Positions 1 to 19,711 of a stretch of DNA of 64,000 nt are shown piece by piece. Below the pieces are notes generated by a model. That model had not been told where the DNA came from, did not search any database, and worked only from the letters and a program-made list of their open reading frames with translations. The stretch is from contig JBKAGE010000078.1 of assembly GCA_046290225.1 (NCBI GenBank), positions 448,001 through 512,000 of the forward strand, read 5' to 3'. The first letter of the stretch is position 1, and every line of letters begins with the position of its first letter. This stretch comes from Bradymonadia bacterium. Its GTDB lineage: Bacteria; Myxococcota_A; Bradymonadia; UBA7976; UBA1532. A program made the translations under genes and the position numbers.

Positions 1-3000
1 GCAGCGGTACCCTCACTGTGGGCGACGAGTATCACTTCCAGTTCTCCGAGGCGATGGACACCACCAACACCGTGGCCGACGCCCAACTGGTCATGGTGGG
101 CGGTGGCAGCTACGGCAACGAGAACCAGGTGGCCTGGAGCCCCGATGAGCGCGTGGCGGTGGTCACCCTCAACGAGGGCTTCACCGTCAACGGCGATGAG
201 CAGGTCACTCCGGTGGACATGTTCGACCCCTACGGCAACGCCGTGGTGGGCACCCAGGTCCTGTCGGACATCGACACCGTGGCCCCCACCTTCCTGGCCA
301 TCGACTGGGTAGACGTGGACGACAACGGTCAAGGCAGCCTGGGCGATCAGCACATCTTCCGCTTCAGCGAGGCCATGGACACCACCATCATCGAGGGTGG
401 GGTGGATGCCAACACCCACCTGCGCCCCCAGGGCAGCCGCCGCTACGGCAGCACCAACGTGGTGGAGTGGAGCGCTGATCGCCGGTCGGTCACGGTGACC
501 ATGACCGAGGGCTACACCATCCAGGACAACGAGCTGGTGGTGCCCACCCGCTTCGTCACCGATGTGGCCGGCAACTCGGTCGTCGGCACGCAGAACCTCA
601 GCGGTCGCGACGAGATCGCACCGGAGATGCTGGCCATCCGCTTCAACGACGCCAACGGCAACGGCGCGGTCTCCCTCGGTGACAGCTTCACCTTTGTCTT
701 CAGCGAGCCCATGCGCACCGCACCGGTGTCCAACGGCACCACTGAGGCCAACATCAACCTGTCCCCTGCCGGCCGGCGCTACGGCACGGTGAACCAGGCC
801 CGTTGGAACGCCGACAACACCGAGGTCACCGTGACGGTGACCCCGGGCTTCACCATCGTCGGCAACGAGCAGGTCGCACCGGCCCCCCTCATCGCCGACG
901 TGGCAGGCAACACGGTGATCAACGGCCTGGCGCTGAACGTCCAGGACGTACAGCCCCCGAGCCTCGTGGAGATCAGCCCGCGCTACATCAGCCCGCTGAG
1001 CCCGGTGAGCGACTACCGCCTGACGCTGCGCTTCAACAGCGCCATGGATCCGAGCCAGCTGCCCAACATAGTCCTCAACAACGACGATGGCCCCAACCCC
1101 GTGGTGGTGGACGGCGAGTGGCTGACCACGCGTTACCCGAACGACACCTACACCACCGGGAACATCGACCTCACCGCGGATCACCACGGCATCCTCACGG
1201 TGGACGTCACCGACGCCACCGATGTGGCCGGGAACACCATGACCTCCGCCGAGGGGGCCTACACCCTAGATCTCGACGCCATCGAGCCCGCTGCCCCGAA
1301 CACTCAGATTCAGGTGCAGGGCTGTGACGCTGCCCGCCTCAGCTGGGCGGGCTACGACGCCCCCGAGGATCTCGCCGGCTTCCAGATTTACCGTGAAGGC
1401 GCCGCCTTCAACGAGGTGGACGGCGTGAGCCTGTTCGACCAGATCGCTTCGGATCGTCGGGAGTACACCCTGACCGGTCTGCAGCTGGACACCACCTACC
1501 ACGTGGGCGTGGCCGCCCTGGACCGGGTGACCAACTTCAGCGCCAACGTGGTCTCTCAGGCCGTGCGCATCGATCAGGTGGTGCCTCCGGCAGTGCCTGT
1601 GAGTCTCGCCGCCGGCGCTGATCCCACAACGGTGGTGGTTCGCTGGAATGGCTACAACGCCAGCGCCTACTGCGGCCTGGCAGGCTTCCGGGTGTACCTG
1701 CAAGAGGCGAACTTCAACGACGTGGGCGCCCTGGCCCCCGTCTCCACCCTCGGTGCCGAAGCGACTCAGACCGAGCTCGTGGGCCTCGCCCGGGATCGCG
1801 TCTACTACATCGCCGTCGTGGCCTTCAACGAGGCCGGCGAGGCGCTGAACGCGGTGAACACCCGCGAGTGGACCGACCCCCTCTCCGGTGCGGTCTCCAG
1901 CGATCTCACCCTGGGCAACGGCGCCCAGCGCGTCATCGACGTGAACGAGACCATGGTGGTGGTGGGCGGCGCGGTGGTCACCATCGCCCCAGGGACCACG
2001 GTGCGCTTCGGCCCCGACGCCGGCATCGTGGTGCAGGACGGCGCCCTCGTCGCCGAAGGCACCGTCTTCGAGCCCATCCTGCTCACCAGCCAGAACCACA
2101 CCCCTGCCCGGGGTGACTGGAGCGGTGTGGAGCTCACGGCGGGTGCCGGCGGCTCCATCTTGAACCATGTCGCCTTGGAGTACGGCGAGGGCCTCACCAT
2201 CGACGGCTCCAGCCCCTCGGTGGAGAACTTCACCGCTCGTCATAACCAGGGCTCCGGCATCAGCGTCAGCGGCGGGAACCTGGACCTCAGCGACGACACC
2301 CTCCTGACCTTCAACGACACGGGCATGTCGGTGGGTGCTGGCGGCAACTTCAACATCACCGGCAGCGTCATCAAGAACAACACCGTCAACGCGCTCAACG
2401 ACGGTGGCACCCTCACCGCCGAGGGCAACTGGTGGGGCTCCCTGGACGCGGGCACCATCGCCGGCGGTGTGCAGGGCGCCGTGAGCACCGACAACTTCCT
2501 CGACTATGAGCCGGTGCTCTCCCCTGCGGTCCGCGTGGCCGGTGGCGAGACCCTGGTGGTGCGACGCCGCATCAACCTCGACCTCACCGCCCGCAACGCC
2601 GTGGAGATGCGGTTCAGCGAGGACGACACCTTCAATGGTGTGTTCTTCGACGACTTCGCCACCACGGGGGAGCACCTCGTCTCCAGCGGCTCCGGGGCCA
2701 AGACCATCTACGCCCAGTTCCGCAGCATCACCGGCACCAACTCGGCGCCGGTGGCCTTCGTCTTCGACTTCGACACCACCGAGCCGGTCATCGACAACTT
2801 CAGCCTCGAAGAGGGCCAGGTCGTCGGGCGTCCCATCGAGGTGGTGGGCCAGGCCTCCTCAGGCATCGGCCTCACCCGTCTCGACATCGAGATCAACGGC
2901 GAGATCGTCTCCAGCAACGAAGTCTCCCCGGTGACCTACGCCTGGGACCCGCGTCAGTGGCCCGAGGGCATCTACACCGTCCGTCTGTGGGTGTACGACG

Positions 3001-6000
3001 TCGCCGAGAACGTCGTGGTCGTGGAGCGCACCGTGTTCGTCGAGCACCAGGCGCCGCCTCAGCCGGTCATCACCGATCCCCAAGATGGCCGTCTGTTCAA
3101 CGTGACCCAGATCAACATGCAGGGCACTGCAGAGCCCAACGTCACCGTAGACGTGAAGCGTGATGGCTTTACCGTCGGCCGGCCGGTCGCCGCAGCGAAC
3201 GGCATCTGGACCCTCGCCGACGTGGATCTGGTGGAGGGCACGCAGACCTTCGTGGCCCGCGCCGTAGACGAGATCGGCACCAGCCTGGCCTCCGAGGGCG
3301 TCACCGTGGCGCTGGACACCGGGGCGCCCGGTACGCCGGTGCTCACCGAGGCCCATCTCATCCTGGGTCGTGGTGTCATCGTAGGCTGGGAGCCTCCGGC
3401 ACAGGGCGAGGAAGCCGTCCGCTACGACGTCTACCGTCACGCCGTGGACTTCGGCAGCCCCGCCGAGGCCGTTCGGGTGGCTCAGAACATCGAGGAGCTG
3501 TCCTGGCTGGACGAGACCGGCGATGAGGGCAACTGGTACTACGCCGTCGTGGGTCTCGACACCCCCGGCAATGCCAGCGGCCTCTCCAACCGCCTCTCGG
3601 CACAGTACGACCTCACGCGGCCGGCCATCACCGTCAGCATCCCCGATCAGGCCAGCTTCGGCATCGGCCCCGTGGCGCTCACGGTGGAGTCCAGCGAGTC
3701 GCTGCAGCAGGCCCCCACCCTCACGGTGACCCCTCAGGGCGTCGGCCCAGTGGCGGTGAGCCTCGTCGAGGTGGGCGCGAACCGCTACACCGGTGTGTTC
3801 AACATCACCGGCGCCACCCCCTCCGGTCCGACAGTGCTCCGGGTCACCGCCACCGACGTGGTGGGCAACGTGTTCTCCGGCGCCCCTGTAGGGGCAGGCC
3901 CCGTGGTGGATACCCAGGGCCCCGAGGTCCAGTCGCTCACCTACAACGTGGATCCCCCAGTTCAGGTGCTCGACACCAAGGATGTGCAGGTGGATCTGGT
4001 GCTCGACGAGCCTGCGGCCATCGGCACCATCCCCAACATGACCTACGATCCGCCCATCGGGAACCCCGTGAACGTGGGCCTCGCGGGCTCTGGCGCCGTC
4101 TGGCGGGGTACCCTCCGCCTCACCTCGGCCATGGGCAGCGGCCTCGGCACCTTCAGCGTCACCGCTGAAGACACCTTCGGCAATATCCGGACCTCCCCCG
4201 GCGGCTCGCTGGAGATCTACGACGACGATGCCCCGAACCCCACCGTGCCCCCGTCGCTCACCTCGGCCACCAGCCGACCCGCAGGTGCCGTGGAGTTGCG
4301 GTGGAACGCCGTACCTCAGGCCAGCAGCTACAACGTCTACCGCAGCACCGGGAACTGCCCGGGTGACGGCTGGGTCGAGATCGCCAGCGGCATCAACGAC
4401 CTGACCTACACCGATACCCCTGAGACGGATGGCGTCTACTGCTATGGTCTGACCACCGATCGTCTCGGCGCAGAGAGTGGGGCCTCCAACCGCTTCAACG
4501 TCCTGTCCGATCGCGTGCCCCCCGAGGCGCCGACCAACCTCGCCGTGGTTCTGGCCCCTGCCGGTGTGCGGGTCACCTTTGACGCCTCACCCGGCGACGA
4601 GGTGCCCACCCGGTACCGTGTCCTGCGCAACGGCGATCAGATCCGCAGCCTCAACGGCGGCCTGAACACGTACACCTACAACGATCACCCCCCTGCTGGT
4701 GGTGACTTCGACTACACCATCGAGGCTCAGGACGGCGCCGGCAACACCGCCACCACCGCCCCCGAGACCTTCTCGCTGGCTGTGGGCGCCGTCACCCAGC
4801 TCGAGGTCCTGCTCGACCACTTTGAGCCCCCCCTCCTCACCTGGGGTCGCAGCGATCCGAACACCACCGGCTACCATGTGGAGCGTGGCGGTGTGCGGAT
4901 CACCCAGCAGCCCCTGCAGGAGCCCCGCTTCGTCGACGAGACCTACCCGGGCAACAACGTCGTGGAGTACGCCGTCATCGCCGTCAACGCCGAGGGGCAG
5001 GAGAGCCCGCCCCGAACCGTCAGCGTGAAGCCCGTCTTCTTGGACGTCTTCGCTGATCGCACGGTGTCGCACTACTTCAACCAGCTGCAGATCCAGCTCA
5101 TCAACTCCGACGGCGTTGTGCACGTCGACAGCATCGAGACCCAGATCACCGTCAACGGCGAGGAAGAGTTCCTCACCACCGACGAACTCGGTGTGGATGT
5201 TGCCGGCGCGCCCTTCGAGTTCATCCGGGTCTTCCCCACCTCGGCGAACCTGGATACCCGCATCGTCCGGGTCACCGCCCGCGTGAACAGCGAGGCAGCC
5301 ACGGTGCGGTACCGCCGCTTCGCCGCAGCCAACGTCTATCGCGCCCTGGGGCAGCTGGACCTTGTCGCCGCCGACACTCCGGTGGCCGGTACGCTCAGCA
5401 GCATCGAGGTGTGCATCAACAACCGCGGCCAAGCCCCCATGGACGTCGTCACCGCACGCGAGAACGGCAGCCAGCCTGGCGATCTCACTGTGGCGGTCAC
5501 CAGCGCCGATGGGCAGGAGCTGAGCCGGGGCACCGTGCAGACCATCCCCGCCGGGGCGCGCTTCGACGGCAACACCATCTTCACCCGAATCCCCGCCAAC
5601 GGTCGGACCTGCGTGGACGTCAACGTCGTGGTGCCCGAGGCCCTCGAGGAGGGCGCTCAGATCCAGTTCGTGGCCACAGTGCCTGCATTCTCCTGGGCTC
5701 GGGATGGCGCCAACATCCCTGCTCTGGCGCAGCTCACTGGCAGCATGAACTCCAGCATCACCACCACCGCCTACTTCGGCACAGCCCAGGCGGACCGGGA
5801 TATCTACATTGGAGACGACACGGTGGTCATCACCGGTCAGGCCATCGATCGGGAGACGAACAACCCGCTGCCCAACACGGCCCTCAAGGTGGGCTTCACC
5901 ACCCGGGGCTTCTCGTGGACCGAGGATGTCACCACCGACGACGACGGCAACTTCCAGTACAACTACAACCCGGCCCACGGCCTCGCCGGTGAGATCGTCA

Positions 6001-8135
6001 TCTGGGCGGCTCACCCCGACGTGGTCGATGTCCTCGACCAGGATCGGTTCACCATCTACCGGGTCTACACCCGACCCTCGAGCATGAACCTGCGCTCGGC
6101 CAAGGCGGACACGCTGGACTTCAACGTCAAGGTGCTCAACCCCGGCGACGTCCCCCTCACCGGCTTGCAGCTGGCCACCGAGGCCTTCATCACCGACGAG
6201 AACGGCGACGAGCAGCCCATCGACAGCATCCGGGGCAGCATCATCGACCTGCCTGCGGACTTCGAGGTGGCCGCTGGTGGCGAGGGCGAGATCACCCTCC
6301 AGCTGGAGGCGGACATCGACGCCCCGGATCACGCCCTCGTCCTCTACCGGCTGACCTCCGCCGAGGGGGCCGCCGTGGTGGTGGACGCCAACGTCACGTT
6401 GTCCGAGGCCATCCCCATCATCAACGTGAAGGCGCCGGCCCGGGGCTTCGTGGACGTCAGCATGCGGCTCGGCGAGATCGAGACTGTGCCCGTCACCCTC
6501 ACCAACGAAGGTCTGCGCCCGCTGGAGAACGCTGTCCTCACCGTACCCGCGGTGCCCTGGATCACCACCAACCGCGAGGTTGTGGATGGACAGGTGGCCC
6601 TCGGCGACATCGCCGTCGGCGAGAGCGTCACCCTCGACGTAGTGCTGACCCCCGGCGAGGATCTGGAGCAAGGCCCCTACGCCGACCAGTTCCAGCTCAC
6701 AGGCGACAACTCGGCCCAGGTGTTCGACCTGAACGTCTTCGCCCTGCTCACCTCTGCCGACGAAGGCGCCGCGGAGTTCCGGGTCCTGGCCAACACCGGG
6801 GATCCGGTGGAGGGCGCCAAGGTCCGACTCCAGAACAGCGCCATCCGCGCTGCGGACTCGGCCACCACCGACGAGAATGGGGTGGCGCGCTTCAACGCGC
6901 TGTCCACCGGGACGTGGTCCTACCAGGTCACCGCCCCAGGCCATGCCAGCGTCTACGATGTCGTGGAGGTCGAGGCAGAGCAGACCACCGTCACCACGGT
7001 GGAGTTGGAGCGGGAGCTGGTCTCCATCAACTTCCGAGTGGAGCCGGTGCCCTTCACCGACCGCTACGAGATCAAGATCGAGCAGACCTTCGTGACCAAC
7101 GTGCCTGTGCCCGTGCTCGTGATCGACCCGCCCTTCGTGCAGATCGACAACCCCGAGCCCGGGTTCCAGACCACCATCATCGCCAAGGTGAAGAACGAGG
7201 GCCTCAAGGCCATCGACGACGTCACCCTGACCCGGGACGAGATCGAGGAGGCCAGCCTCATCCCCCTCATCGAGTACATCCCACGCCTAGGCGCCATGCA
7301 GACCGTTGAGGTGCCCTTCCGGATCATCTACCGCGGTGATCAGCAGCCGGACCAGCCGGCGTGCACCGTAGGCGACGCCGGCAGCGCTGGTCAGGCGGCT
7401 CTGGGCATCGCCTCGATCATCGCCGGCAGCAGCCGCTCGGACATCTCCGGTGCCGAGAAGCGGGCCGCCGCCACGCTGACGACGGCCTTGCTCCTGCTCG
7501 CCGATCTGTCTGTCTGCCCAGGCATCCCTGGCACTCCGAGCCTCCCCGGCGGCGGCAGCTGCCTGGCGGGTCTGCTGATGCAGTTCATGCCATGCATCGG
7601 CAGTGGTAGCTCCGATGGGGGCAACAACAATGGCCCGAGCGGCCCGGGCAACAGCAGCCCTGGTGGCTTTGGTCCTCCTGGCTGCTTCACCGAGGGTACG
7701 CCGGTGCTCATGGCCGATGGCTCCCGTCAGCCCATCGAGAGCATCCAGGTGGGCGACAAGGTCGCGGGCCTGGACGGCGAGGCCGCCGAGGTCACCCGCA
7801 CCTATGTCCGAGAGAGCAGCCACGTACGCGAGGTGCGCTACCGCGACGAGAAGGGCCAGCTGAGACGGCTGGAGACCACCGACGGCCACGCATTCAGAGA
7901 GAAGAAACGAGGATGGGTGCCTGCCGGCAAACTCGAGGTGGGCGACACGCTCATCCTCGTGGAGGGAGAGGCCACCATCGTCTCCACCGAGCGCTATGAT
8001 GAGGCCGTGGAGGTGTTCAACCTCGACGTGGCCGATCAGCACGCCTACTTCGCCAACGATGCCTGGGTACAGCAGAAGTGCGATGCCGAGGTGAAGCTGG
8101 ATGAAACCAACATGACCGAGGAGGAGGGGCAGTGA
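1..8135 (+). CDS. Giant extracellular multidomain protein, 5' end outside the window: ~100-aa repeats with DxDxNG-type loops, Ig-like and FN3 domains, parallel beta-helix, carboxypeptidase-regulatory-like domain, C-terminal Hint domain
   Basis: The frame is open from the window edge (AGC GGT ACC CTC ACT GTG...) and this segment matches the internal repeat GxxSLGDxxxFxFSExM, so the true start lies upstream. Contains FN3 motifs (LSWAGY..GFQIYR..YHVGVAA), a NWWG beta-helix motif and a Hint at the end. Confidence 0.85.
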   Translation, partial: SGTLTVGDEYHFQFSEAMDTTNTVADAQLVMVGGGSYGNENQVAWSPDERVAVVTLNEGFTVNGDEQVTPVDMFDPYGNAVVGTQVLSDIDTVAPTFLAIDWVDVDDNGQGSLGDQHIFRFSEAMDTTIIEGGVDANTHLRPQGSRRYGSTNVVEWSADRRSVTVTMTEGYTIQDNELVVPTRFVTDVAGNSVVGTQNLSGRDEIAPEMLAIRFNDANGNGAVSLGDSFTFVFSEPMRTAPVSNGTTEANINLSPAGRRYGTVNQARWNADNTEVTVTVTPGFTIVGNEQVAPAPLIADVAGNTVINGLALNVQDVQPPSLVEISPRYISPLSPVSDYRLTLRFNSAMDPSQLPNIVLNNDDGPNPVVVDGEWLTTRYPNDTYTTGNIDLTADHHGILTVDVTDATDVAGNTMTSAEGAYTLDLDAIEPAAPNTQIQVQGCDAARLSWAGYDAPEDLAGFQIYREGAAFNEVDGVSLFDQIASDRREYTLTGLQLDTTYHVGVAALDRVTNFSANVVSQAVRIDQVVPPAVPVSLAAGADPTTVVVRWNGYNASAYCGLAGFRVYLQEANFNDVGALAPVSTLGAEATQTELVGLARDRVYYIAVVAFNEAGEALNAVNTREWTDPLSGAVSSDLTLGNGAQRVIDVNETMVVVGGAVVTIAPGTTVRFGPDAGIVVQDGALVAEGTVFEPILLTSQNHTPARGDWSGVELTAGAGGSILNHVALEYGEGLTIDGSSPSVENFTARHNQGSGISVSGGNLDLSDDTLLTFNDTGMSVGAGGNFNITGSVIKNNTVNALNDGGTLTAEGNWWGSLDAGTIAGGVQGAVSTDNFLDYEPVLSPAVRVAGGETLVVRRRINLDLTARNAVEMRFSEDDTFNGVFFDDFATTGEHLVSSGSGAKTIYAQFRSITGTNSAPVAFVFDFDTTEPVIDNFSLEEGQVVGRPIEVVGQASSGIGLTRLDIEINGEIVSSNEVSPVTYAWDPRQWPEGIYTVRLWVYDVAENVVVVERTVFVEHQAPPQPVITDPQDGRLFNVTQINMQGTAEPNVTVDVKRDGFTVGRPVAAANGIWTLADVDLVEGTQTFVARAVDEIGTSLASEGVTVALDTGAPGTPVLTEAHLILGRGVIVGWEPPAQGEEAVRYDVYRHAVDFGSPAEAVRVAQNIEELSWLDETGDEGNWYYAVVGLDTPGNASGLSNRLSAQYDLTRPAITVSIPDQASFGIGPVALTVESSESLQQAPTLTVTPQGVGPVAVSLVEVGANRYTGVFNITGATPSGPTVLRVTATDVVGNVFSGAPVGAGPVVDTQGPEVQSLTYNVDPPVQVLDTKDVQVDLVLDEPAAIGTIPNMTYDPPIGNPVNVGLAGSGAVWRGTLRLTSAMGSGLGTFSVTAEDTFGNIRTSPGGSLEIYDDDAPNPTVPPSLTSATSRPAGAVELRWNAVPQASSYNVYRSTGNCPGDGWVEIASGINDLTYTDTPETDGVYCYGLTTDRLGAESGASNRFNVLSDRVPPEAPTNLAVVLAPAGVRVTFDASPGDEVPTRYRVLRNGDQIRSLNGGLNTYTYNDHPPAGGDFDYTIEAQDGAGNTATTAPETFSLAVGAVTQLEVLLDHFEPPLLTWGRSDPNTTGYHVERGGVRITQQPLQEPRFVDETYPGNNVVEYAVIAVNAEGQESPPRTVSVKPVFLDVFADRTVSHYFNQLQIQLINSDGVVHVDSIETQITVNGEEEFLTTDELGVDVAGAPFEFIRVFPTSANLDTRIVRVTARVNSEAATVRYRRFAAANVYRALGQLDLVAADTPVAGTLSSIEVCINNRGQAPMDVVTARENGSQPGDLTVAVTSADGQELSRGTVQTIPAGARFDGNTIFTRIPANGRTCVDVNVVVPEALEEGAQIQFVATVPAFSWARDGANIPALAQLTGSMNSSITTTAYFGTAQADRDIYIGDDTVVITGQAIDRETNNPLPNTALKVGFTTRGFSWTEDVTTDDDGNFQYNYNPAHGLAGEIVIWAAHPDVVDVLDQDRFTIYRVYTRPSSMNLRSAKADTLDFNVKVLNPGDVPLTGLQLATEAFITDENGDEQPIDSIRGSIIDLPADFEVAAGGEGEITLQLEADIDAPDHALVLYRLTSAEGAAVVVDANVTLSEAIPIINVKAPARGFVDVSMRLGEIETVPVTLTNEGLRPLENAVLTVPAVPWITTNREVVDGQVALGDIAVGESVTLDVVLTPGEDLEQGPYADQFQLTGDNSAQVFDLNVFALLTSADEGAAEFRVLANTGDPVEGAKVRLQNSAIRAADSATTDENGVARFNALSTGTWSYQVTAPGHASVYDVVEVEAEQTTVTTVELERELVSINFRVEPVPFTDRYEIKIEQTFVTNVPVPVLVIDPPFVQIDNPEPGFQTTIIAKVKNEGLKAIDDVTLTRDEIEEASLIPLIEYIPRLGAMQTVEVPFRIIYRGDQQPDQPACTVGDAGSAGQAALGIASIIAGSSRSDISGAEKRAAATLTTALLLLADLSVCPGIPGTPSLPGGGSCLAGLLMQFMPCIGSGSSDGGNNNGPSGPGNSSPGGFGPPGCFTEGTPVLMADGSRQPIESIQVGDKVAGLDGEAAEVTRTYVRESSHVREVRYRDEKGQLRRLETTDGHAFREKKRGWVPAGKLEVGDTLILVEGEATIVSTERYDEAVEVFNLDVADQHAYFANDAWVQQKCDAEVKLDETNMTEEEGQ
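7683..8075 (+). other. Hint (intein-like/BIL) autoprocessing domain within the giant protein
   Basis: G/CFTEGTPVLMADG..PIESIQVGD (block A), TTDGH (block B TxxH), GWVPAGKLEVGD, VFNLDVADQHAYFAN (block F); ends WVQQ-K-C. Confidence 0.9.
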
Positions 8136-11100
8136 TGCGTCGGCTCACACTCATCTTCGTATTGCTCTGCCTGAGCCTGCCCGCTCAGGCGGCCCGTCAG
8201 TTCGACGGGGTCTGCTCCGTCGTCAAGATGGAGATCCTCCAGGAGCTCACGCTTGAGCGGATCGGCTTCCTGGCCACCTTGGAGATCACCAACAACGAGT
8301 CGGACGCCAGCATCACCGACTTCTCCGCGGCCCTCACCTTCCAGGTGGAGGACGAGAACGGAGAGCTCGTGGAGGCTGCCGACCTGTTCTTCGTGCAGGC
8401 CCCCGAGCTGCGCGGGGTGAGGTCCATCGACGGCACTGGGGTCATTCGCCCCGGTGAGACCGCCACCATCAGCTGGTTCATCATCCCCACCATCACCGCC
8501 GGCGGCACCGACGCCAACGGCATCAACTACAACGTCGGGGCCCTACTCGGTGGCTCCCTCCTCGGAGAGCCCATCGATCCCGACACCCTCGCGGTCATCC
8601 CCGACACCATCACGGTGCGGCCGGAGCCTCAGCTGGAGATTTTGTACTTCCAGCCCCGGGACGTGCAGGGCGACAACCCCTTCACCCCCAACGTCGAGAG
8701 CCCCATCCCCTTCACCCTGGGGGTCCGGGTCAAGAACGTGGGCTACGGCACCGCTCGCAAGCTGAAGATCGCCTCCGAGCAGCCCCGCATCGTGGAGAAC
8801 GAAGGGGGGTTGCTGCTCGTGCCGCAGCTCCTCGGCGCCCGAGTGGACGATGATCCTCTGGACAACAGCACCCTCACGGTGGACCTGGGGAACATCGAGC
8901 CGAGCAGCTGTCGAAAGGCCTCGTGGGACATGATCACCAGCCTCTCTGGTGAGTTCACCGAGTTCGAGGCCTCGTACACCCACGACCTCGACCTCGGCGG
9001 CGGCCGGGACATCTCGGTCATCACCGCCATCGACGCCCACTTCATGGTGGCGGAGGTGCTCAACGATCAGCCTGGCCGCGACAGCCTCCTGGACTTCCTC
9101 GCCACCACTGACGACAACACCCGGGAGCTGATCCCCGACACCTTGTTCGAGAGCGACTGCAACACCCTGCCGGTGAACCACCTGCAAGACGTGGAGCTGC
9201 TTGAGTTCGCCAACCTCACCGCCCGCATCCGGGTCAACGTCGATGTGGCCAACCACATCTTCTTCCGCCTCGACGATCCGGGCCAGGCCCGCTACGACAT
9301 CGTCCGAGTGACCCGCTCCGACGGCAAGGTGCTCGACAGCCACAACAGCTGGACCAACATGCGGTACCGCGAGGAGGACAACGCCCGCCTCGAGTACCTC
9401 AACGTCTTCGACTTCGCCCCCCTCGGCGAGTACGAGTACCTGGTGGAGTTCTCTGCCCCCGAGGTGGATCTCGCGCCCCCCGTGTCGCAGATGCTGTTCT
9501 CTGGCCCCCGTGAAGAGGTGGGCGGGATCAACTACATCACTCCCGAGACTCAGATGCTGTTTCTCGTGGAGGACGCCAGCCCGGTGAGCAGCTACTACCG
9601 CCTCGACGGCGGTGACACTCTCCCAGGCTTCCCCTTCACCGTCCCCGCCAGTGGGGCCCACGTGGTGGAGTTCTGGGCTGAGGATGCCTCCGGCAACATC
9701 GAGGACGTACAGCGCGCCGACCTCTTCGTCACTGTGGACGATCCCGCCCTCGCGGGTGTCGCCACCAGCACCGGTGAGGTCTTCACGGGCGGCAACTCCG
9801 TCACCGTACGACCCGAGCAGGTTGAGGTCAGCTTCGACGGCCAGACCCAGGGCGCCACCTTCACCACCTCCGCGGAGGTCTACCGCGGCGTCTACGCCTT
9901 CCCCACCCTCGCCGGCACCCCGTCCTCCCCCACTCGGGACACCGTGGCCAGCCTCACCGTGGGCGGGCACCTCGTGGACTTCTATCAGTACCGCGTCGGT
10001 GTAGAGGACTGGAGCGATGAGCGCCCTGTGGATCAGGTCATCGAGCTCGAGAACCTCTCGGGCACAGTCATTGTCTCCGTGCGGGGCCGCAGCCAGCACT
10101 CCACCGAGTGGAACACCGCCGAGCAGACGGTGACCTGGGAGGTGAATCCCCTGGCGCCCCTCACCGCCATCAGCGGTACGCCAGCCAGCCCGAGCCGGAC
10201 CGGCGACGCCACCTTCACCGTCAGCAACGTGGAGCTCTACCGCTGGCGCTTCCCCGGCAGCTTCTACCGCGCCGAGGCCGCGCCCTCCGTGGTCGTCAAT
10301 CTCAACCAGCTCGACGATGGCCAGCAGGCTCTGGACGTCATCGGGCGCAACGGCGGCCAGTGGCAGGACGAGGAGGCCCCCACCTTCGTCAACTGGCGAG
10401 TCGATCGACTCTACGGCACCCGCCTCCCCGCTGATGCCCGGGTTCGTCACGAGGCCCTCGGCGACGCCGAGCGTTTCGTGTGGGACGCCCGCAACGACGA
10501 CGGCGTGCCGGTCAGCTCGGGGTGGTACTCCATCAAGATCACCATGACCGACGGCCTGGGCCGCGAGACCGCCCAGATCGTCCCTGTGCGGGTGGGCGAT
10601 CTGCTCCCCGACGGGGAGGCCGTCTCCTACTCCGGCGCTGCCAGCCAGCGAGAGGCATACGCCTCCGGTCGGTGGGCTGTGTGGTCGGACCAGCGCCTCG
10701 GCGACTGGGACATCTGGTACCGCCCCCTCGACGTCGACGCCCCTGGGGCCCCGCTGCTCGTGAAGGCCCTGAACCAGGAGCGCCCCCACACCGATGGCCG
10801 CTATGTGGTCTGGCAGGATCGCCAGGCCGACGGCAACTACGACATCTGGATCAAGCCCATCGAGGGTGGAGAGGCCACCGCCATCACCAGCACCGCGGGT
10901 CAGAACGAGACCCGCCCGGTGGTCTCGTGGCCGTGGGTGGTCTACCAGAGCCAGTCGGTGGCGGATCAGAACAACCCGACCCAGCTCTTCGCCCACAACA
11001 TCCAGCAGCAGGAGACCTTCCAGGTGGATCCCACCGACTGGAACCAGGCAGATCCGCGCATCGACGGGGATCGGATCGTCTGGCAGGACTTCCGCGATGC

Positions 11101-12052
11101 CGGCTTCGGCGAGATCTACTTCGCCAACCTGCGCACCCGCGCAGTGCGCCGCATCACTGATGATCCCGGGGGTCAGTACCACCCGGTCATCGACGGCAAG
11201 TGGATCGTGTGGGCCGACAACCGCGATGGAGACTTCGACCTCTACGGCTTCAACCTGAAGCGTGGTGTGGAAGTCGCCCTCACCGACACGGCCATCAACG
11301 AGACCCGCCCCCACATCAACGACGGCTGGGTGACCTTCGAGGCCGACACCGCCTCGGTGGAGTACACCGACTTGCGGATGATGAACCTGGGCAACCTGGC
11401 CACCATCCAGCTGACCAACACCCCCTCCGAGAAGGAGAAGCCGGTCCACGCCGACGGCGAGCTGGTGTGGGTGGATCATCGCTCTGGCAAGCGCGATGTC
11501 ATGCACGGCGCCCTGCCCAACCTGCAGGCGGTGTACAACAACAAGAACGCTGTGGCCCTCACCGCGGGCCTCATCGCCCGAGCCAGCACTGCCCATGAGC
11601 TGCTGGCCCTGTGGCAGGCAGAGGCCGGGGTGACCGCCCTGACCCGCTACACCACCCTGCTGCCCTCGCCGGCAGCGGAGGAGGTCCGGTGGGAGAACGG
11701 CGCCCCTGTGGGCGACGACTTCAACCTCGAGGCGGGCAGCTTCCTCTGGGTGGAATTCGCCGACGGCCGCGTGGTGGACCTCATCGACGATCCCTGTAAC
11801 GCCCCGAGCCTCTCTGCTGGGGTGAACGCCTTCGGCTTCGCCTGCTTCCCCGACGACTACTCGGCTTGGCAGCTGGTCCGGGAGCTGGGGGCGGCGAACG
11901 TCAACGCGGTGCGGATGCTCGACTCGGCCACGGGCCGCTGGGTGAGCTCCGCCGTCGTCGGTGGGCAGCTCGCCGGTGACGACTTCGCCATCCCCCGGGT
12001 GGCGGTGGTGATGTTGGACATGGCAGCCCCGGTTGCGGAGTGGAACCCATGA
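8135..12052 (+). CDS. Secreted multidomain protein: conserved-looking N-terminal domain, Ig/FlgD-like module, TolB-like beta-propeller repeats, C-terminal tandem domain pair
   Basis: Signal peptide MRRLTLIFVLLCLSLPAQA; VWDARNDDG..SSGWYSIKI; repeated VVWQDxRxxGxxDIW/Y blades; start overlaps the upstream stop (GTGATG, alternative GTG start 8132). Confidence 0.8.
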   Translation: MRRLTLIFVLLCLSLPAQAARQFDGVCSVVKMEILQELTLERIGFLATLEITNNESDASITDFSAALTFQVEDENGELVEAADLFFVQAPELRGVRSIDGTGVIRPGETATISWFIIPTITAGGTDANGINYNVGALLGGSLLGEPIDPDTLAVIPDTITVRPEPQLEILYFQPRDVQGDNPFTPNVESPIPFTLGVRVKNVGYGTARKLKIASEQPRIVENEGGLLLVPQLLGARVDDDPLDNSTLTVDLGNIEPSSCRKASWDMITSLSGEFTEFEASYTHDLDLGGGRDISVITAIDAHFMVAEVLNDQPGRDSLLDFLATTDDNTRELIPDTLFESDCNTLPVNHLQDVELLEFANLTARIRVNVDVANHIFFRLDDPGQARYDIVRVTRSDGKVLDSHNSWTNMRYREEDNARLEYLNVFDFAPLGEYEYLVEFSAPEVDLAPPVSQMLFSGPREEVGGINYITPETQMLFLVEDASPVSSYYRLDGGDTLPGFPFTVPASGAHVVEFWAEDASGNIEDVQRADLFVTVDDPALAGVATSTGEVFTGGNSVTVRPEQVEVSFDGQTQGATFTTSAEVYRGVYAFPTLAGTPSSPTRDTVASLTVGGHLVDFYQYRVGVEDWSDERPVDQVIELENLSGTVIVSVRGRSQHSTEWNTAEQTVTWEVNPLAPLTAISGTPASPSRTGDATFTVSNVELYRWRFPGSFYRAEAAPSVVVNLNQLDDGQQALDVIGRNGGQWQDEEAPTFVNWRVDRLYGTRLPADARVRHEALGDAERFVWDARNDDGVPVSSGWYSIKITMTDGLGRETAQIVPVRVGDLLPDGEAVSYSGAASQREAYASGRWAVWSDQRLGDWDIWYRPLDVDAPGAPLLVKALNQERPHTDGRYVVWQDRQADGNYDIWIKPIEGGEATAITSTAGQNETRPVVSWPWVVYQSQSVADQNNPTQLFAHNIQQQETFQVDPTDWNQADPRIDGDRIVWQDFRDAGFGEIYFANLRTRAVRRITDDPGGQYHPVIDGKWIVWADNRDGDFDLYGFNLKRGVEVALTDTAINETRPHINDGWVTFEADTASVEYTDLRMMNLGNLATIQLTNTPSEKEKPVHADGELVWVDHRSGKRDVMHGALPNLQAVYNNKNAVALTAGLIARASTAHELLALWQAEAGVTALTRYTTLLPSPAAEEVRWENGAPVGDDFNLEAGSFLWVEFADGRVVDLIDDPCNAPSLSAGVNAFGFACFPDDYSAWQLVRELGAANVNAVRMLDSATGRWVSSAVVGGQLAGDDFAIPRVAVVMLDMAAPVAEWNP

Positions 12053-12753
12053 AGAATCTTCTGATTTTCGCGTTGCTGATGTTGCCGTGCGCCGCCGAGG
12101 CCATGACCGTTGACGAGCTGCGCGCTCTCCAAGAAGAGCACGCCCGGGTCATCGTCATCGACGTGCGCTCACCCTACATGTTCTCTCAGGGGCACATCCC
12201 CGGAGCCCTGAACATCCCCGCGGGCGAGCTCGCAGAGAAGCGCTTGCCCCAGCTGGGCCAGGTGGTGGTCTACGGCGACGGCATCCACGTCGATGCGGTG
12301 GACCAGGCCGTGACCGCCCTCAACAACAAAGAGGGCATCCAAGCAGAAGCCCTCGTGGGCGGCTTTCCTACCTGGGAAGGCCGCAACGGGATCACCACCC
12401 ACGCAGCGGGCATGGAGAGCCACCATGCCAAGACGCTCGACTACAAGCAGCTCAAGGCCTTGTCCACGGACCGCCCGGTCATCCTGGTGGACCTGCGCAA
12501 GCATCGGACCAACCTGCGCCGGCACTTCCCTCAGGGGCGGATGCAGTACACCTTGCCGCGCCGCGTCGACGACAGCGGTGAGATCCTCTACGTGATCATC
12601 GACGACGGTGACGGTCGCGCCGAGAAGGCCGCCCGCAAGCTGAAGGCCATGGGCACCCCCCGGGTGGCCATCCTCTCTGGTGGCGCCCACGCCATCCGCA
12701 GCGAGGGCCGCCCGCAACGCAAGATCATCCGCCCGAGGGGGGAGCAGCAGTGA
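12049..12753 (+). CDS. Secreted tandem rhodanese-homology protein, active-site Cys absent
   Basis: Signal peptide; IDVRSPYMFSQGHIPGALNIP and LVGGFPTW; second domain ILVDLR..ILSGG; ATGA overlap with the upstream stop. Confidence 0.85.
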   Translation: MKNLLIFALLMLPCAAEAMTVDELRALQEEHARVIVIDVRSPYMFSQGHIPGALNIPAGELAEKRLPQLGQVVVYGDGIHVDAVDQAVTALNNKEGIQAEALVGGFPTWEGRNGITTHAAGMESHHAKTLDYKQLKALSTDRPVILVDLRKHRTNLRRHFPQGRMQYTLPRRVDDSGEILYVIIDDGDGRAEKAARKLKAMGTPRVAILSGGAHAIRSEGRPQRKIIRPRGEQQ

Positions 12754-15700
12754 GCACCAAGATCGCAGCCATGAGTCTACGGATCGCCCTCAGCGTGGCG
12801 GCACTGACCTGCGTCGCGCCTCTGCACGCTCAGGCGCAAATCGCCATGGATGATGTGCAAGTGGTGGACGTGAGCCCCACCGGGTTCTCGGTGACCTTCA
12901 GCGCCGACGAAGGCGTGCCCCGCATCGCCATCTTTGCAGGCGACGTTGGCCAGGAAGCCGAGGTCAAGCTCTACGAGCACGAGTCGTGGCCTCTCGACTC
13001 GGGTGATCCCACCATCGTCGAGCCGTATGACCAGCGTACCTACCTCGCGGAGGTGCGTCAGGAGGCCGCCGCCCTCGGGCTGATGTGGGCCCGAGTGGAG
13101 GGCCTTGTCCCCGGTGAGACCTACAAGTACCGGGTGCTCACCGAGAGCCAGGGCGACAGCGGCACGTGGCCCGCTGATGGCAGCCTCGCCTCCATCACGT
13201 TGCCTGACGAGAACAAGTTCCTGTCTCACAGCACCGCCATCTGGCTGGGGCTGGATGACGACACCGCCCGAGGCTGGGTGATCACCGCCACCGCCCCGGG
13301 CGTCCTCTCCCCCGTCTCCGCCATCGCAGGTGACGGCGCTCCTCGGGGCAAGGCCTACATCAACCTCGCCGGCATGCTGATGCCCAATGGCGAGAGCTGG
13401 TCCCCCAACGGCGATCCCGTCACCCTGGAGGTCCAGCGCGGTGCGGGCCAGTCCAGCGCGGTGGTCGTGGACGTCGAGGCCTCCAACGGCTTCGCAGTCG
13501 GCGAAGTCATCGAGGTCCAGATCGGCGGCGCCATCTCCGCGGCCTTTGATCCTGTGGAGACCATCGTTCCTCAGCCCGACGCCCTCGACATCGACCTGGT
13601 GTTGAGCCACGTGTTGGAGGCCGACGTCCCCGTTCAGATCGCCCTGGCCAGCGATCCCCCCGGCGTGCTTTTCGACGACAGTGGTCTGCCGGACACCATC
13701 CCGGTCAACGACGAGATCGTGGCCCCTGTGGGTCTGACGCCGCCCGGACCCGGCGAGTACACCATCATCGCCACCATCACCCCCGACGAGGGCAACGCCA
13801 TCGCCACCTCGGCGACGGTCCGGTGGCTTGATCCTGCCCTGGCGCCCACCATCACCGCCATCAACTTCCCGTCGCCTGTCAACGAGGGCACCGGCTTCAC
13901 CCTCAGCGTAGAGGCTGATGATCCCAACGATGACGTCGCCACGCTCACCTATGCGCTGGATCAGGACAACGACGGCACCTTCGAGGTGAGTCAGACGGGT
14001 AACCCCGACTTCAACCTGCTCTTCGCCGACAATGGCAACATCACCGTCACCGTGGCGGTGATCGATCCCGAGGGTGGTCGTGTGGAGCAGGCTCAGCTTC
14101 TCGCTGTGCAGAACGTCGCCCCCACGGTGGACAACGTGGCGCCCGCAGTGGGCCAGGAAGGCCAGCCCTACGCCTTCGACCCTGTGGTCAGCGATCTGGG
14201 CACCGACACCTTCAGCTTCGCCTTCAACCGCGCCCCCGAGGGCGCCACCGTGGACGCCGACACCGGCGCCGTGCGGTGGACCCCCACCCTGGCCAACCGC
14301 CGGAACCGCGACACCACCTTCACCCTGGCGGTGAGCGATGATGATGGTGGCGTAGGCCTCTACACGTGGCAGGTGGATGTGAGCCTCATCGATGACAACG
14401 GTGACGGCGTGCCCGACACCTGCGCCGATGAGTTCAACCTCGCAGGCCCTGGTGATGATGATGGCGACGGCCGCTCCAACGCCTTGGAGTGCAGCGAGGG
14501 CGGCAACCCCCTCGCTGGCAGCCTCCCCACGGCGCCGGTGACCATCCGCCCCCGCAACTGCCCCACCGTGGCTGAGCGCCCCACCCTGGAGATCGAGGCC
14601 AGCTCGGATCCGGAGAACGACGCCCTCACCTACACCTTCCAGATCCTGTTCGACGCCCCCGACGTCCAGAACGCCGACGATCTCGACGTGGCGGCGGAGA
14701 TCACGGGCATCGATGCCCTCACCTGGGCGCCTGATGCCGATCTCGCGGATGGCTTCTACCACTGGCGTGCTCGGGCCAACGACGGCGTGGGCGATGGTCC
14801 CTGGAGCGTGGTGGAGCAGTTCACCGTCAACCTGCAGGCAGCCTGTGGTTGCCCCATCGGTCAGCCTGACCTCGACGGCGACGGCATCTGTCAGGACGTG
14901 GACAACTGCCCCGGAACCCCAAACCCCGATCAGACGGATGACAACGGCGACGGCTTCGGCGACGCCTGCGTGAGCCCCTCTGCCGACATCGATCCCACCG
15001 CCATTCTCGGCGAGGGCATCGTCATCGGTGAGAACGCCGAGATCGGGCCCTTCGCTCGGGTGGACGACGGCGCTCGGGTCATGGGCACCATGGGCTCCAG
15101 CTCTCGCCTCGGCGCCGGCTCGGTCCTCAGCGCAGGCTCGAGCCTGAGCAACGGCGCTCAGATCGGTGACAACGTGGGCATCGGCACCGGCACCAGCATC
15201 GGCACCATCACGCGCATTGGCGACGGCGCCACCGTGGGTGACGGCGTCACCATCGGGGCCCAGGTCAACATCGGCGCCGGCGCTGTCATCCCCGATGGCG
15301 TGCAGATGGGACAGATCATTCAGGTGGGGGCCAACACCCAGCTGGGCGGTGGCTGTGTTGTGGGCGATAACGTCATCATCGGCGCCAACGGCACGATGGG
15401 GGCTGGCTGCACGATCGAGTCGAACGCCCGCGTGGGCAACGATTTCGTCTTCGGCGCCGCCGTGCACATCGAGGCCAACGCTGTGGTCGACGACGAGGCG
15501 AACTTTGGTGAGGGTACCCGCGTGGGCGACTACGCCTTCGTGGGTCGCAACGCTCACCTCGCTGCCGGTACCACCCTCTCCTCTGGCGCCACCCTCGGCG
15601 AAGACGCCAATGTCGGCGCCAACTCCGAGATCCGCGGCGCCCTGGGCAACGGTGTGACCTTGGGTGAGGACTGCTTCGTGGGGAACCAGAGCAGCCTCGC

Positions 15701-16223
15701 CGACAGCTGCACCTTCGGCGACCGCGTCACCACCGGCATCTTCGTGAGCCTCGACGCGCGCTGCGACATCGGCGAAGACACTGCCATCTACGACGGGGTC
15801 GTCCTTGGCGCCGATGCAACGATCGGTGCCCGCGGCATCGTCTTGTTCCGGACCAACATCGGCGCCCGAGCCAACATCGGCAACGACACCATCGTCGACG
15901 CGCAGATCACCATCGGCACCGACTTCAGCCTGGGCAACAACAGTCGTCTGTGGCCCCGCTCGACCTACGGCAACACCGTCACCATCGGCAACAACGTGCT
16001 GATTCGCGACACCGCCGACGTAGGCGACGACGTCACCATCGAAGACGACGTCATCATCTTCCCCAGCACCACCATCGGCGACGACGCTACGATCCGCCAG
16101 GGTGTGGGCATTGGCGTAGCAAACTGCAGCAACCGTGTTTGCGGTCAGGTCACCATCGGCGAGTGCGCCGATGTCGACGCCGATATGTCCCCCCGCAGCA
16201 ACCGAGAGAGCGCCTGCAACTGA
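12750..16223 (+). CDS. Secreted protein: FN3-like, PKD/cadherin-like Ig domains, TSP3-type Ca-binding repeats and a ~400-aa hexapeptide (left-handed beta-helix) C-terminus
   Basis: Signal peptide; VQNVAPT..YAFDP..GATVDADTGAVRWTP; DLDGDGICQDVDNCP; continuous [IV]Gxxxx hexads from ~14970; GTGA overlap. Confidence 0.8.
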   Translation: MSTKIAAMSLRIALSVAALTCVAPLHAQAQIAMDDVQVVDVSPTGFSVTFSADEGVPRIAIFAGDVGQEAEVKLYEHESWPLDSGDPTIVEPYDQRTYLAEVRQEAAALGLMWARVEGLVPGETYKYRVLTESQGDSGTWPADGSLASITLPDENKFLSHSTAIWLGLDDDTARGWVITATAPGVLSPVSAIAGDGAPRGKAYINLAGMLMPNGESWSPNGDPVTLEVQRGAGQSSAVVVDVEASNGFAVGEVIEVQIGGAISAAFDPVETIVPQPDALDIDLVLSHVLEADVPVQIALASDPPGVLFDDSGLPDTIPVNDEIVAPVGLTPPGPGEYTIIATITPDEGNAIATSATVRWLDPALAPTITAINFPSPVNEGTGFTLSVEADDPNDDVATLTYALDQDNDGTFEVSQTGNPDFNLLFADNGNITVTVAVIDPEGGRVEQAQLLAVQNVAPTVDNVAPAVGQEGQPYAFDPVVSDLGTDTFSFAFNRAPEGATVDADTGAVRWTPTLANRRNRDTTFTLAVSDDDGGVGLYTWQVDVSLIDDNGDGVPDTCADEFNLAGPGDDDGDGRSNALECSEGGNPLAGSLPTAPVTIRPRNCPTVAERPTLEIEASSDPENDALTYTFQILFDAPDVQNADDLDVAAEITGIDALTWAPDADLADGFYHWRARANDGVGDGPWSVVEQFTVNLQAACGCPIGQPDLDGDGICQDVDNCPGTPNPDQTDDNGDGFGDACVSPSADIDPTAILGEGIVIGENAEIGPFARVDDGARVMGTMGSSSRLGAGSVLSAGSSLSNGAQIGDNVGIGTGTSIGTITRIGDGATVGDGVTIGAQVNIGAGAVIPDGVQMGQIIQVGANTQLGGGCVVGDNVIIGANGTMGAGCTIESNARVGNDFVFGAAVHIEANAVVDDEANFGEGTRVGDYAFVGRNAHLAAGTTLSSGATLGEDANVGANSEIRGALGNGVTLGEDCFVGNQSSLADSCTFGDRVTTGIFVSLDARCDIGEDTAIYDGVVLGADATIGARGIVLFRTNIGARANIGNDTIVDAQITIGTDFSLGNNSRLWPRSTYGNTVTIGNNVLIRDTADVGDDVTIEDDVIIFPSTTIGDDATIRQGVGIGVANCSNRVCGQVTIGECADVDADMSPRSNRESACN

Positions 16224-16359: not shown

Positions 16360-16713
16360 GGTGGGTGAGCATGGGCAACCATGCCCCAGTGCACGCACTC
16401 ACGGGCCTCATTTCCGGGGCGTGGAATGTGCACCACAGCGCTCTATGGCCTCTGATGAGCCCCAATTGTGCAGCTGTGCACGATTCACATGGACACATCC
16501 GTGTGACGTCGGCGCTCACACAGTGAAGCCGTACACACCTGAAAACAAAAGCCTTCTACACCAATCGGTGTGACTGAGCCCACATTCACCACAGCTCACC
16601 ACACGATATCCGGTTGCCTGAATGTGCATTCATTCACAACAATCCACCACAGCTCAGGGCGCCCGGCATGGGCATCCACAGCACACATCATCGTTCTCCA
16701 AAGGAGGCCCGAC

Positions 16714-17409
16714 ATGGCTGAAGTCATCACGCTCGGCACGCGACTGAAAGGCATCTTGAAGGAGCGTGGTCGCTCCCAGACCTGGCTCGCCGAGAAGACC
16801 GGCATCGATCGCAGCGAGATCAACCGCATCTTGAACGGCCGCAAGGCCCCCCGCGGGGAGCACCTGCGCTGGATGGCCACGGCCCTGGGCATGGACGTCG
16901 ATCAACTCGTGGGCGACGCTCAGATTCCCCAGGAGACCGTCCGCGAGGCCGAGCGTCTCCAGTCGGTCATGGAGAAGAAGCTGCTCGCCGAGAGCGAGCG
17001 GGACATCGCCCTCGCTCGGGTGAAGAGCCTCGAGGCTCAGCTCGAAGCCGAGACTCAGCGGCGCATCTCTGCGGAAGCAGAGTTGGAGACCATCAAGAGC
17101 GAGCAGGCCGAGACCACCGAGATCAACCGCAGCCTGCGCAACAGCATTGATGGCATGAAGGAAGCCCGCCAGAAGCTCGCCGGGTACGCTGAGCTGCTCA
17201 AGCAGCAGCGAGACAACGCTCAGGCGGCCCTCGACGAGGCCCGCAGCTGGATTCAGCGTCTGTCCGCCGAGCACTCCGCTCAGGAGAGCTGGAACACCTT
17301 CCTCGGCCGCTTCGATCGCTTCTTCAACACGTCGTTCTCTCAGAGCGGCAACGAAGACGCCGAGCCCACCGAAGACGAGCAGCTCAACGGCGCCGCCGCT
17401 CAGGGCTGA
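16714..17409 (+). CDS. XRE-family HTH regulator with long C-terminal coiled coil
   Basis: AAGGAGG RBS before ATG 16714; LKGILKERGRSQTWLAEKTGIDRSEINRILNG; heptad-rich tail. Confidence 0.85.
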   Translation: MAEVITLGTRLKGILKERGRSQTWLAEKTGIDRSEINRILNGRKAPRGEHLRWMATALGMDVDQLVGDAQIPQETVREAERLQSVMEKKLLAESERDIALARVKSLEAQLEAETQRRISAEAELETIKSEQAETTEINRSLRNSIDGMKEARQKLAGYAELLKQQRDNAQAALDEARSWIQRLSAEHSAQESWNTFLGRFDRFFNTSFSQSGNEDAEPTEDEQLNGAAAQG

Positions 17410-19078: not shown

Positions 19079-19711
19079 CTATTCGGAAACCTGAGCGTCC
19101 GGGCCGTCACCCTCGCCACGCTTGGCGTCGAGGGCCTGGAAGAAGCCGCGGAAGTACCCAAAGGCGCTGGTCAGGCTGAAGAAGACCGACCCCCACATCA
19201 CGATGATGCCCACGCGGTGAAAGTCGACGGTGGCGTCGTACAGACCGAAGAAGGACAGCTCGTAAGGGTAGTGCACCACCAGACACATAATGCCCATCAT
19301 CTGCAGGGCGGTCTTGTACTTCCCCAATTGCCCTGCGGCGATGACGAGCCCTTCGTTGATGGCCATGGCCCGTAAGCCCGTAATCGTGATCTCTCGAGCC
19401 AGGATGATGACCACCAGAGAAGCCGGCACCCGATAGAGAGGCACCAGCATCACCAGCATGGCCATGACCATCAGCTTGTCGGCGAGGGGGTCGAGGAACT
19501 TCCCCATGACAGTGACCAGCCCCTGGCGTCGTGCGAGCCACCCGTCGAGGAAGTCGGTGATGCTCGCAGCAGAGTAGACATAGCCAGCCCAGACGCAGTC
19601 TTCGGGAGAGCCTTGCCAGATGAGGGCCATGACCACGGGAATCGCCGCCACGCGGGCCAGGGTCAACAGATTGGGGAGGTTGAGGAGCTCGGCCTTGAGG
19701 GTGGACTTCAT
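19079..19711 (-). CDS. pgsA: CDP-diacylglycerol--glycerol-3-phosphate 3-phosphatidyltransferase
   Basis: NLPNLLTLAR; TDFLDGWLARR..GKFLDPLADK. Confidence 0.93.
   Translation of the reverse strand: MKSTLKAELLNLPNLLTLARVAAIPVVMALIWQGSPEDCVWAGYVYSAASITDFLDGWLARRQGLVTVMGKFLDPLADKLMVMAMLVMLVPLYRVPASLVVIILAREITITGLRAMAINEGLVIAAGQLGKYKTALQMMGIMCLVVHYPYELSFFGLYDATVDFHRVGIIVMWGSVFFSLTSAFGYFRGFFQALDAKRGEGDGPDAQVSE

Follow-up and report, generated by a model that had tools for sequence, protein, structure and literature searches.

The window analysed here, a stretch of 64,000 nucleotides of contig JBKAGE010000078.1 (C78) from a Bradymonadia bacterium, contains the 3' part of a gene for a giant protein which ends in an intein-like Hint domain, followed by a conserved set of genes for secreted proteins. 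Translation of the giant starts at C78:435586, 12.4 kb upstream of the window, and yields 6,849 amino acids (aa), 6,699 of them ahead of the Hint domain; a preliminary description of this DNA had put the body at more than 2500 aa, which holds but falls well short of the true length. On the basis of a signal peptide (identified by eye) and profile matches to beta-helix, FN3, Ig and carboxypeptidase-regulatory-like repeats the giant is classed as a secreted protein, and over its full length its cysteines are mostly grouped as neighbouring pairs. With a probability of about 0.7, its Hint would be an N-terminal-only, Hedgehog-like autoprocessing domain, probably redox-gated, that does not splice.

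The C-terminal region of the giant includes a conserved anchor domain, a hydrophobic segment, a flexible linker, the Hint domain and a short tail (Table 1). The segment had been described as Cys-containing hydrophobic helices; its cysteines are indeed conserved in Hint-bearing relatives (Cys(a) 60/60, Cys(c) 59/60 and Cys(b) 45/60, with Ser at the Cys(b) position, 7437-7439, in the window), but the helices are modelled by AlphaFold2 (AF2) at low confidence (block means 48-69). The linker, correctly recognised beforehand as a G/S/P/N tract ending in PPG, consists to 90% of G/S/P/N/T (family median length 35 aa) and leads into the junction GGFGPPG/CFTEG.

Cys1 (codon 7683-7685) and the TxxH motif (Thr66/His69 within ETTDGH, 7878-7889) are intact, and the codons CAG CAG at 8070-8075 place Gln-Gln where His-Asn is usual, both as first described. 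The C-terminal end reads NDAWV-Q-Q-K-C-DAEVKLDETNMTEEEGQ, that is Lys+1, Cys+2, 17 residues and a stop; the call of the Gln-Gln codons rests on the assembly and on the xQ ends of relatives, contigs from small shares of three DNA sequencing runs having none over these codons. The domain matches PT-HINT (Pfam PF07591) with 55 bits against a cut-off of 27.7 and is the sole such match in the whole genome. Its AF2 model has predicted local distance difference test (pLDDT) values of 90-98 throughout; the top Foldseek matches are Tetrahymena BIL2 (6y75) and the bacterial intein-like domain (BIL) 2lwy, and the closest solved structures by sequence are 2lwy and 8w20.

Table 1. Features of the Hint locus (positions in the window)
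Feature	Position	Strand	Remarks
C-terminal 2,710 aa of the 6,849-aa giant	3..8135	+	Open reading frame ends with TGA at 8133-8135
Anchor domain, Ig/CARDB-like, conserved, unnamed	7005..7340	+	Defines the superfamily; partner of the ORF2 N-domain
Hydrophobic helical segment, Cys(a) to Cys(c)	7362..7595	+	
Flexible G/S/P/N linker, 29 aa	7596..7682	+	Ends at the scissile Gly
Hint domain, 131 aa	7683..8075	+	Cys1, Thr66, His69, block-F His120; Gln130-Gln131 replace His-Asn
Cys+2	8079..8081	+	Invariant (156/156); proposed disulfide partner of Cys1 (putative bond)
Unconserved 17-aa tail and stop	8082..8135	+	Holds the ORF2 ribosome-binding site; stop overlaps the ORF2 start
ORF2, 1,306 aa	8132..12052	+	Signal peptide, N-domain "O2N" (8192-9211), FlgD-Ig, beta-propeller
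Rhodanese-like protein, secreted	12040..12753	+	YGDG at active-site loop
ORF4, secreted	12750..16223	+	N-terminal ~250 aa conserved, rest variable (here PKD, Ig, hexapeptide repeats)

Relatives were gathered by protein search (94 hits), from genome loci (26) and metagenome loci (58), and by an anchor-profile search of which the best 150 of 2,007 hits were examined. The 189 anchor+Hint sequences obtained were reduced to 158 below 90% identity, the window's included, 156 of them complete and 2 truncated, and 63 unrelated PT-HINTs from the protein search served as controls. The PT-HINT profile is matched at E<=0.001 by 23 of 26 members. Family members share about 30-50% identity while the residues of the N-to-S acyl shift stay invariant: Cys1 is present in 158/158, the block-B His in 156/156 and the block-B Thr in 152, with Ser in the other 4. 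The equally constant Cys+2 is followed by Gly+3 in 134/156, and Cys is absent from the six residues upstream of the Hint in 152/154 (present in 2/154). Among the controls, a Cys within six residues upstream was observed in 38/43 domains with Ser1 and in 2/15 with Cys1; in the Ser1 PT-HINTs a disulfide from upstream to downstream might tether the toxin after excision.

At its C-terminus the family is different. The last residue is Asp in 75, Gln in 45, Glu in 22 and His in 14 of the 156 complete members, and Asn in none, whereas all 63 controls end in His-Asn. The penultimate His occurs in 77/156, the block-F His in 20/156 (62/63 in the controls) and both in 8/156; the "F4" column holds Thr (69), Asn (57) or Ser (23) and no Asp, and the +1 residue is Ser or Thr in 9/156 and Cys in 0/156 (Lys in the window). 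In a tree of 136 columns, from which the last two residues were excluded and in which many forks are unresolved, the 156 members form one side of a branch with support 98. The five terminal-residue labels need 15 changes, one of which is the Asn split, leaving at least 14 among Asp, Gln, Glu and His with no return to Asn; up to 6 changes are required for the His ends, 4 of them forced by starred branches. On these sequence counts (0/156 against 63/63) Asn loss is a family trait and not decay, and because one base change is enough to turn Asn into Asp or His, selection against a terminal Asn is inferred. The alternative raised at the outset, that homologues would keep His-Asn with Gln-Gln as a one-off decay, is thereby excluded. 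Other traits first taken as hallmarks are present in the window but not conserved in the family, in which Gln-Gln ends occur in 1/156, Gly at -1 in 79/158 and acidic tails in 7/60 (tail length 7-61 aa).

The preliminary description included neither the invariant Cys+2 nor the operon nor the fused forms considered below. Over 84 loci, some of them duplicates, anchor and Hint stand in one frame in 80, the others being three contig ends and one frameshift. ORF2 lies directly downstream of the giant in 73 of the 76 loci with enough DNA; the rhodanese-like gene comes next in 65/65 Hint loci of sufficient length, and the variable ORF4 after it. Translational coupling links the giant's tail to ORF2: in 54/60 the stop codon of one gene overlaps or adjoins the start codon of the next, Shine-Dalgarno-like 4-mers are found in 41/60 tails against a background of 19%, and the ribosome-binding site GAGGAGGAGGGG at 8118-8129 lies inside the tail codons of the window. 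The acidic C-extein was rejected as a functional element, being rarely acidic in the family and overlapping this site. Three Hint-ended giants (L037, L047, L052) are not followed by an ORF2; since their contigs bear the same assembly prefixes as those with complete operons (L038, L041), they may be paralogues served by ORF2 in trans.

The predicted mature start of ORF2 (cleavage by eye) is fixed in length and begins with Gln in 40, Ala in 19 and Val in 1 of 60 proteins. The conserved N-terminus reads (A/Q)QQxQGxC, with Gln3 in 58/60 and Gly6 and Cys8 (codon 8213-8215) in 60/60. Inside ORF2 an invariant partner for Cys8 is lacking; the other common cysteines there form mostly covarying pairs. 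Among the operon products, ORF2 alone was seen to combine an unpaired Cys with a conserved N-terminus, which makes it a candidate acceptor of an activated giant. The rhodanese-like protein was rejected as a sulfur donor for a thiocarboxylate since its active-site-loop Cys is not conserved (Cys at the Tyr position in 4/24 relatives, at the next position in 0/24). CTERM families, as sorting signals of ORF4, matched none of 19 downstream proteins.

Anchor and O2N also occur without the Hint. A search for longer proteins with O2N returned 38 hits, and in all material gathered 31 proteins combine anchor and O2N in a single chain, separated by a hairpin with Cys, a Gly-rich linker and an insert that varies, with a Hint in 0/31; this fused form was seen, among others, in abalone and planctomycetes, in an ANME-2 archaeon and in a cyanobacterium, and O2N homologues occur in Haliotis and Volvox. 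In 21 further proteins O2N directly follows its own signal peptide, and an O2N match was accompanied by an anchor match in 8/10 genomes tested. Hint-less arrangements comprise the fused form, split forms with O2N downstream or upstream, and one circularly permuted within a gene (L132); variants were seen at L128-L138 and P0108-P0133. Behind the linker distant relatives carry RHS repeats, DUF6973, Cys-rich tails or HExxH-like cargo, some of it toxin-like, and because RHS, DUF6973 or Cys-rich tails stand at this place in Hint-less relatives, the sequences identify the Hint position as a cargo slot with polymorphic content; the fused form is split at the same point. Pfam has no named family for O2N or for the anchor, and the ESM Atlas gave unnamed clusters or weak DUF11/CARDB leads only, with recognition below threshold. 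A DUF11-type isopeptide in O2N was checked by eye only and rejected, Lys12 being often replaced in fused forms. Judged from sequence, anchor and O2N are an unnamed two-part module with swappable cargo.

In the fused forms Cys(b) covaries with Cys8 (24 with both, 1 and 2 with a single one, 4 with neither; Fisher p 0.002, sequences not independent), which suggests a Cys(b)-Cys8 disulfide in these proteins; that Cys(b) is homologous in the helical and the hairpin type is judged by motif only. No other partner for Cys(b) emerged, there being no matching covarying Cys in the 700 aa upstream or in ORF2. Cys(b) has been lost in 15/60 members of the Hint family, the window included, and Cys8 is kept in 15/15 of these, against 2/6 in fused forms lacking Cys(b). 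This retention may reflect a second role of Cys8 or just shallower divergence.

Cys1 and TxxH form a thioester in Hint domains, and Hedgehog uses this step only, as described in PMC3051819, PMC9163320 and PMC7664689; the Hedgehog disulfide between the catalytic C258 and C400 reportedly has to form first and then be reduced (PMC3051819), and a Cys1-Cys+1 disulfide is reported for the Pab PolII intein (PMC3922620). By analogy, a Cys1-Cys+2 disulfide would probably keep the family's Hint shut after export, until reduction or thiol exchange opens this lock. Cys1, aided by Thr66/His69, would then convert the bond between Gly and Cys to a thioester where the flexible linker ends, as the invariant residues and known chemistry suggest, and the Hint would depart together with its tail without splicing, since the machinery for Asn cyclisation is gone from the family. 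N-terminal activation of a Hedgehog-like kind without splicing had already been proposed for the window, and family-wide conservation lends it support.

Several points weigh against autoprocessing of this kind. The window copy departs from consensus at Gly68 (Glu or Asp in 57/60), Arg72 (Trp in 56/60) and Ser46 (Asp or Glu in 92/156), for which reason it may be less active than the family; it also retains the terminal Gln and the block-F His, and slow C-terminal cleavage may therefore occur. Gln, Asp and Glu ends can still cyclise in some inteins according to PMC4031507 and PMC7765530. No sterol-recognition-like region is conserved in the family tails. P0197, a full-length close relative of 7,004 aa known from a single sequence, has linker, Cys and tail with no Hint.

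The thioester might be passed to a nucleophile outside the chain, a proposal given somewhat less than even odds; BUBL1 BIL2 is reported to conjugate to Lys of other substrates (PMC8616854). As acceptor, the docked ORF2 N-terminus or its Cys8 is unlikely when taken singly, and another surface molecule equally so. Outside transfer is tentatively favoured over plain hydrolysis because self-deletion as the only act fits poorly with invariance across five phyla. Two-gene ligation in the periplasm, a doubtful extension, would covalently join the 6,699-aa giant to ORF2: signal peptidase would expose the fixed-length N-terminus of ORF2, ORF2 would dock on the anchor, and Cys8 would open the Cys1-Cys+2 lock or take over the thioester, rebuilding the single-chain architecture of the 31 fused proteins, while selection against Asn would keep the giant from splicing itself. 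In its favour are the Hint's place at the split point, a median linker length close to that of the shortest fused forms (~29-36 aa, by eye) and the retention of Cys8 without Cys(b). Against it, 3/76 loci lack an adjacent ORF2, 40/60 ORF2s would begin with a Gln able to cyclise, and anchor and O2N occur split without a Hint, so that in general the two do without a peptide link. An N-terminal Gln may become blocked by conversion to pyroglutamate, under a rule described as Bacteroidetes-specific (PMC5837995).

If autoprocessing occurs, it is possible, though less probable than outside transfer, that the thioester just undergoes hydrolysis or thiolysis; in that case the Hint would be a self-removing cap or a folding/redox checkpoint leaving a free C-terminus with nothing joined. 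BILs yield mainly cleavage products (PMC4031507, PMC7664689), anchor and O2N exist as separate Hint-less genes with O2N downstream, upstream or permuted, and no acceptor-binding tail is conserved, all of which agrees with hydrolysis; it leaves unexplained the avoidance of Asn, since C-terminal cleavage would be harmless, and the 15/15 retention of ORF2 Cys8 in loci without its presumed partner Cys(b).

It is rather improbable that the domain is catalytically silent in vivo and serves as a structural or metal/redox module, for instance through a Cys+2-Cys8 disulfide tethering the giant to ORF2, or through Zn held by Cys1, His69 and a D/E/H/Q residue. The invariance of ORF2 Cys8 (59/59 in the comparison of ORF2 cysteines) in the absence of an invariant internal partner, Zn binding described at Hint active sites (PMC9163320) and an oxidising periplasm that could hold Cys1 locked are consistent with such a module, but the entire N-S shift set is invariant in spite of the family's divergence, and it is the upstream Cys(b) with which Cys8 covaries in the fused forms.

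Still less probable is a slow, atypical kind of splicing or of cleavage at the C-terminal side, in which the thioester would move to Cys+2 and cyclisation of Gln (or of Asp/Glu) would release the Hint, giving linker-Lys-Cys-tail. Inteins with Gln, Asp or Glu ends exist and 142/156 members end in these residues, the window copy keeps its block-F His, and four Hint-less relatives ending in linker, Cys and a short tail (P0197, P0134, P0035, P0245) resemble the spliced product. Set against this, the nucleophile is at +2 and not +1, both assisting His occur in only 1/45 Gln-ended members, and the 14 His-ended members have neither. We know of no cyclisation route for a terminal His. P0197 and P0134, close to the family (142 and 166 bits) and each a single sequence, could also be viewed as an empty allele of intein style, with hypervariable flanks.

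Finally, a one-off decayed pre-toxin Hint that has lost its toxin is very improbable: PT-HINT normally precedes a toxin (PMC3482391) and distant relatives carry RHS or DUF6973 cargo in the same slot, but the anchor+Hint ending common to 80 of 84 loci, the invariant N-terminal catalytic set, the family counts and the tree contradict it.

Named loci belong to Myxococcota, Pseudomonadota, Thermodesulfobacteriota, Verrucomicrobiota and Kiritimatiellota. The distribution is patchy, the arrangement being found in only two (G000 and G388) of 401 genomes of the window's phylum and an O2N match in 0/17 family-level relatives of the window genome, which suggests acquisition of the operon by transfer. 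Against transfer, GC content in the operon (0.66) is near that of the genome (0.64). A tRNA-Gly(GCC) (L104:4179-4253, on C78) precedes the 28.6-kb operon, about 1.3 kb ahead of the start of the giant; a genomic island at this tRNA was rejected, a repeat of its 3' end being absent from the contig. Directly after the operon the window encodes an XRE-type helix-turn-helix protein (16570-17409) and, further downstream, an SLT lytic transglycosylase (19711-20445). In Thiohalocapsa the operon is directly followed by a UmuD/UmuC-like gene pair (L002:18668-20642, by eye).

The family statistics, the operon and the cargo slot are new here. Literature searches, mostly outside subscription journals, found no publication on this Hint family, and a term search of a preprint on giant proteins (10.1101/2023.11.21.568195) gave no mention of Hint domains. 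The in vivo role of bacterial intein-like domains is a long-open question, and this clade, whose operon is conserved and includes a candidate acceptor identified by name, offers a direct test of it in whatever is attached to the linker's last residue. Were ORF2 that acceptor, two gene products would be ligated naturally and without ATP, and the system might serve as a ligation tool; the two-part module with its swappable cargo slot ranges from bacteria to abalone.

Among known systems, class 1 inteins ending in Gln or Asp (Pab PolII, CIV RNR) share the terminal Gln and, in Pab PolII, a disulfide at Cys1 (PMC3922620); the terminal Asn/Gln/Asp/Glu of this class is found in the window and in 142/156 members, the other 14 having His. 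They differ in possessing a +1 nucleophile and interrupting a conserved enzyme, while +1 is variable here and some ends are His. B-type BILs (Hint_2, PF13403) likewise uncouple cleavage from splicing and lack His-Asn, but their profile matches at 2-47 of 147 only, and block G aligns with the A-type BILs 2lwy and 8w20. A further kind, the C-type BILs, is known from predatory bacteria. Tetrahymena BUBL1 BIL2 (6y75/6tmm) is the top Foldseek match and an example of Hint-driven conjugation to Lys (PMC8616854); unlike the present domains it has a terminal Asn (solved as C1A-N143A) and is flanked by ubiquitin-like sequence. A divergent Hint at the C-terminus is also described for a further group of secreted proteins from bacteria (PMC2362128).

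A-type BIL/PT-HINT domains (Clostridium thermocellum BIL 2lwy; Streptomyces protein 8w20) are the best profile and sequence matches and share Cys1, TxxH, the lack of a +1 nucleophile and a secreted modular host. Two proteins of the alpha-2-macroglobulin family (P0037 and P0061, one named Patescibacteria) have an internal His-Asn Hint with a C-flank of ~620 aa. The family differs from A-type BILs in lacking the His-Asn by which these are recognised (0/156; PMC7765530, PMC4031507), in having mostly lost the block-F His and in having no toxin behind the Hint; by descent it is PT-HINT-like, but for want of His-Asn and of a toxin it is not filed as an A-type BIL.

Hedgehog (Hint plus sterol-recognition region; 1at0) is unlike in lineage, the PF01079 match reaching 21.9 bits against a cut-off of 29.7, and no sterol-recognition region is present. 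A putative counterpart of the Hedgehog general base D303 (Hint D46) is residue 46, which is Ser in the window copy and Asp or Glu in 92/156 members, and the Gly-Cys junction of Hedgehog is present in the window and in half of the family (79/158). Hedgehog is alike in its C-terminal position on a secreted precursor, its lack of Asn, its Cys1 and TxxH and a second invariant Cys at the end of the Hint (C400 in Hedgehog, PMC3051819; here Cys+2, not in an SCY motif). These domains form a large coherent clade of bacterial Hints which has reached the Hedgehog design independently.

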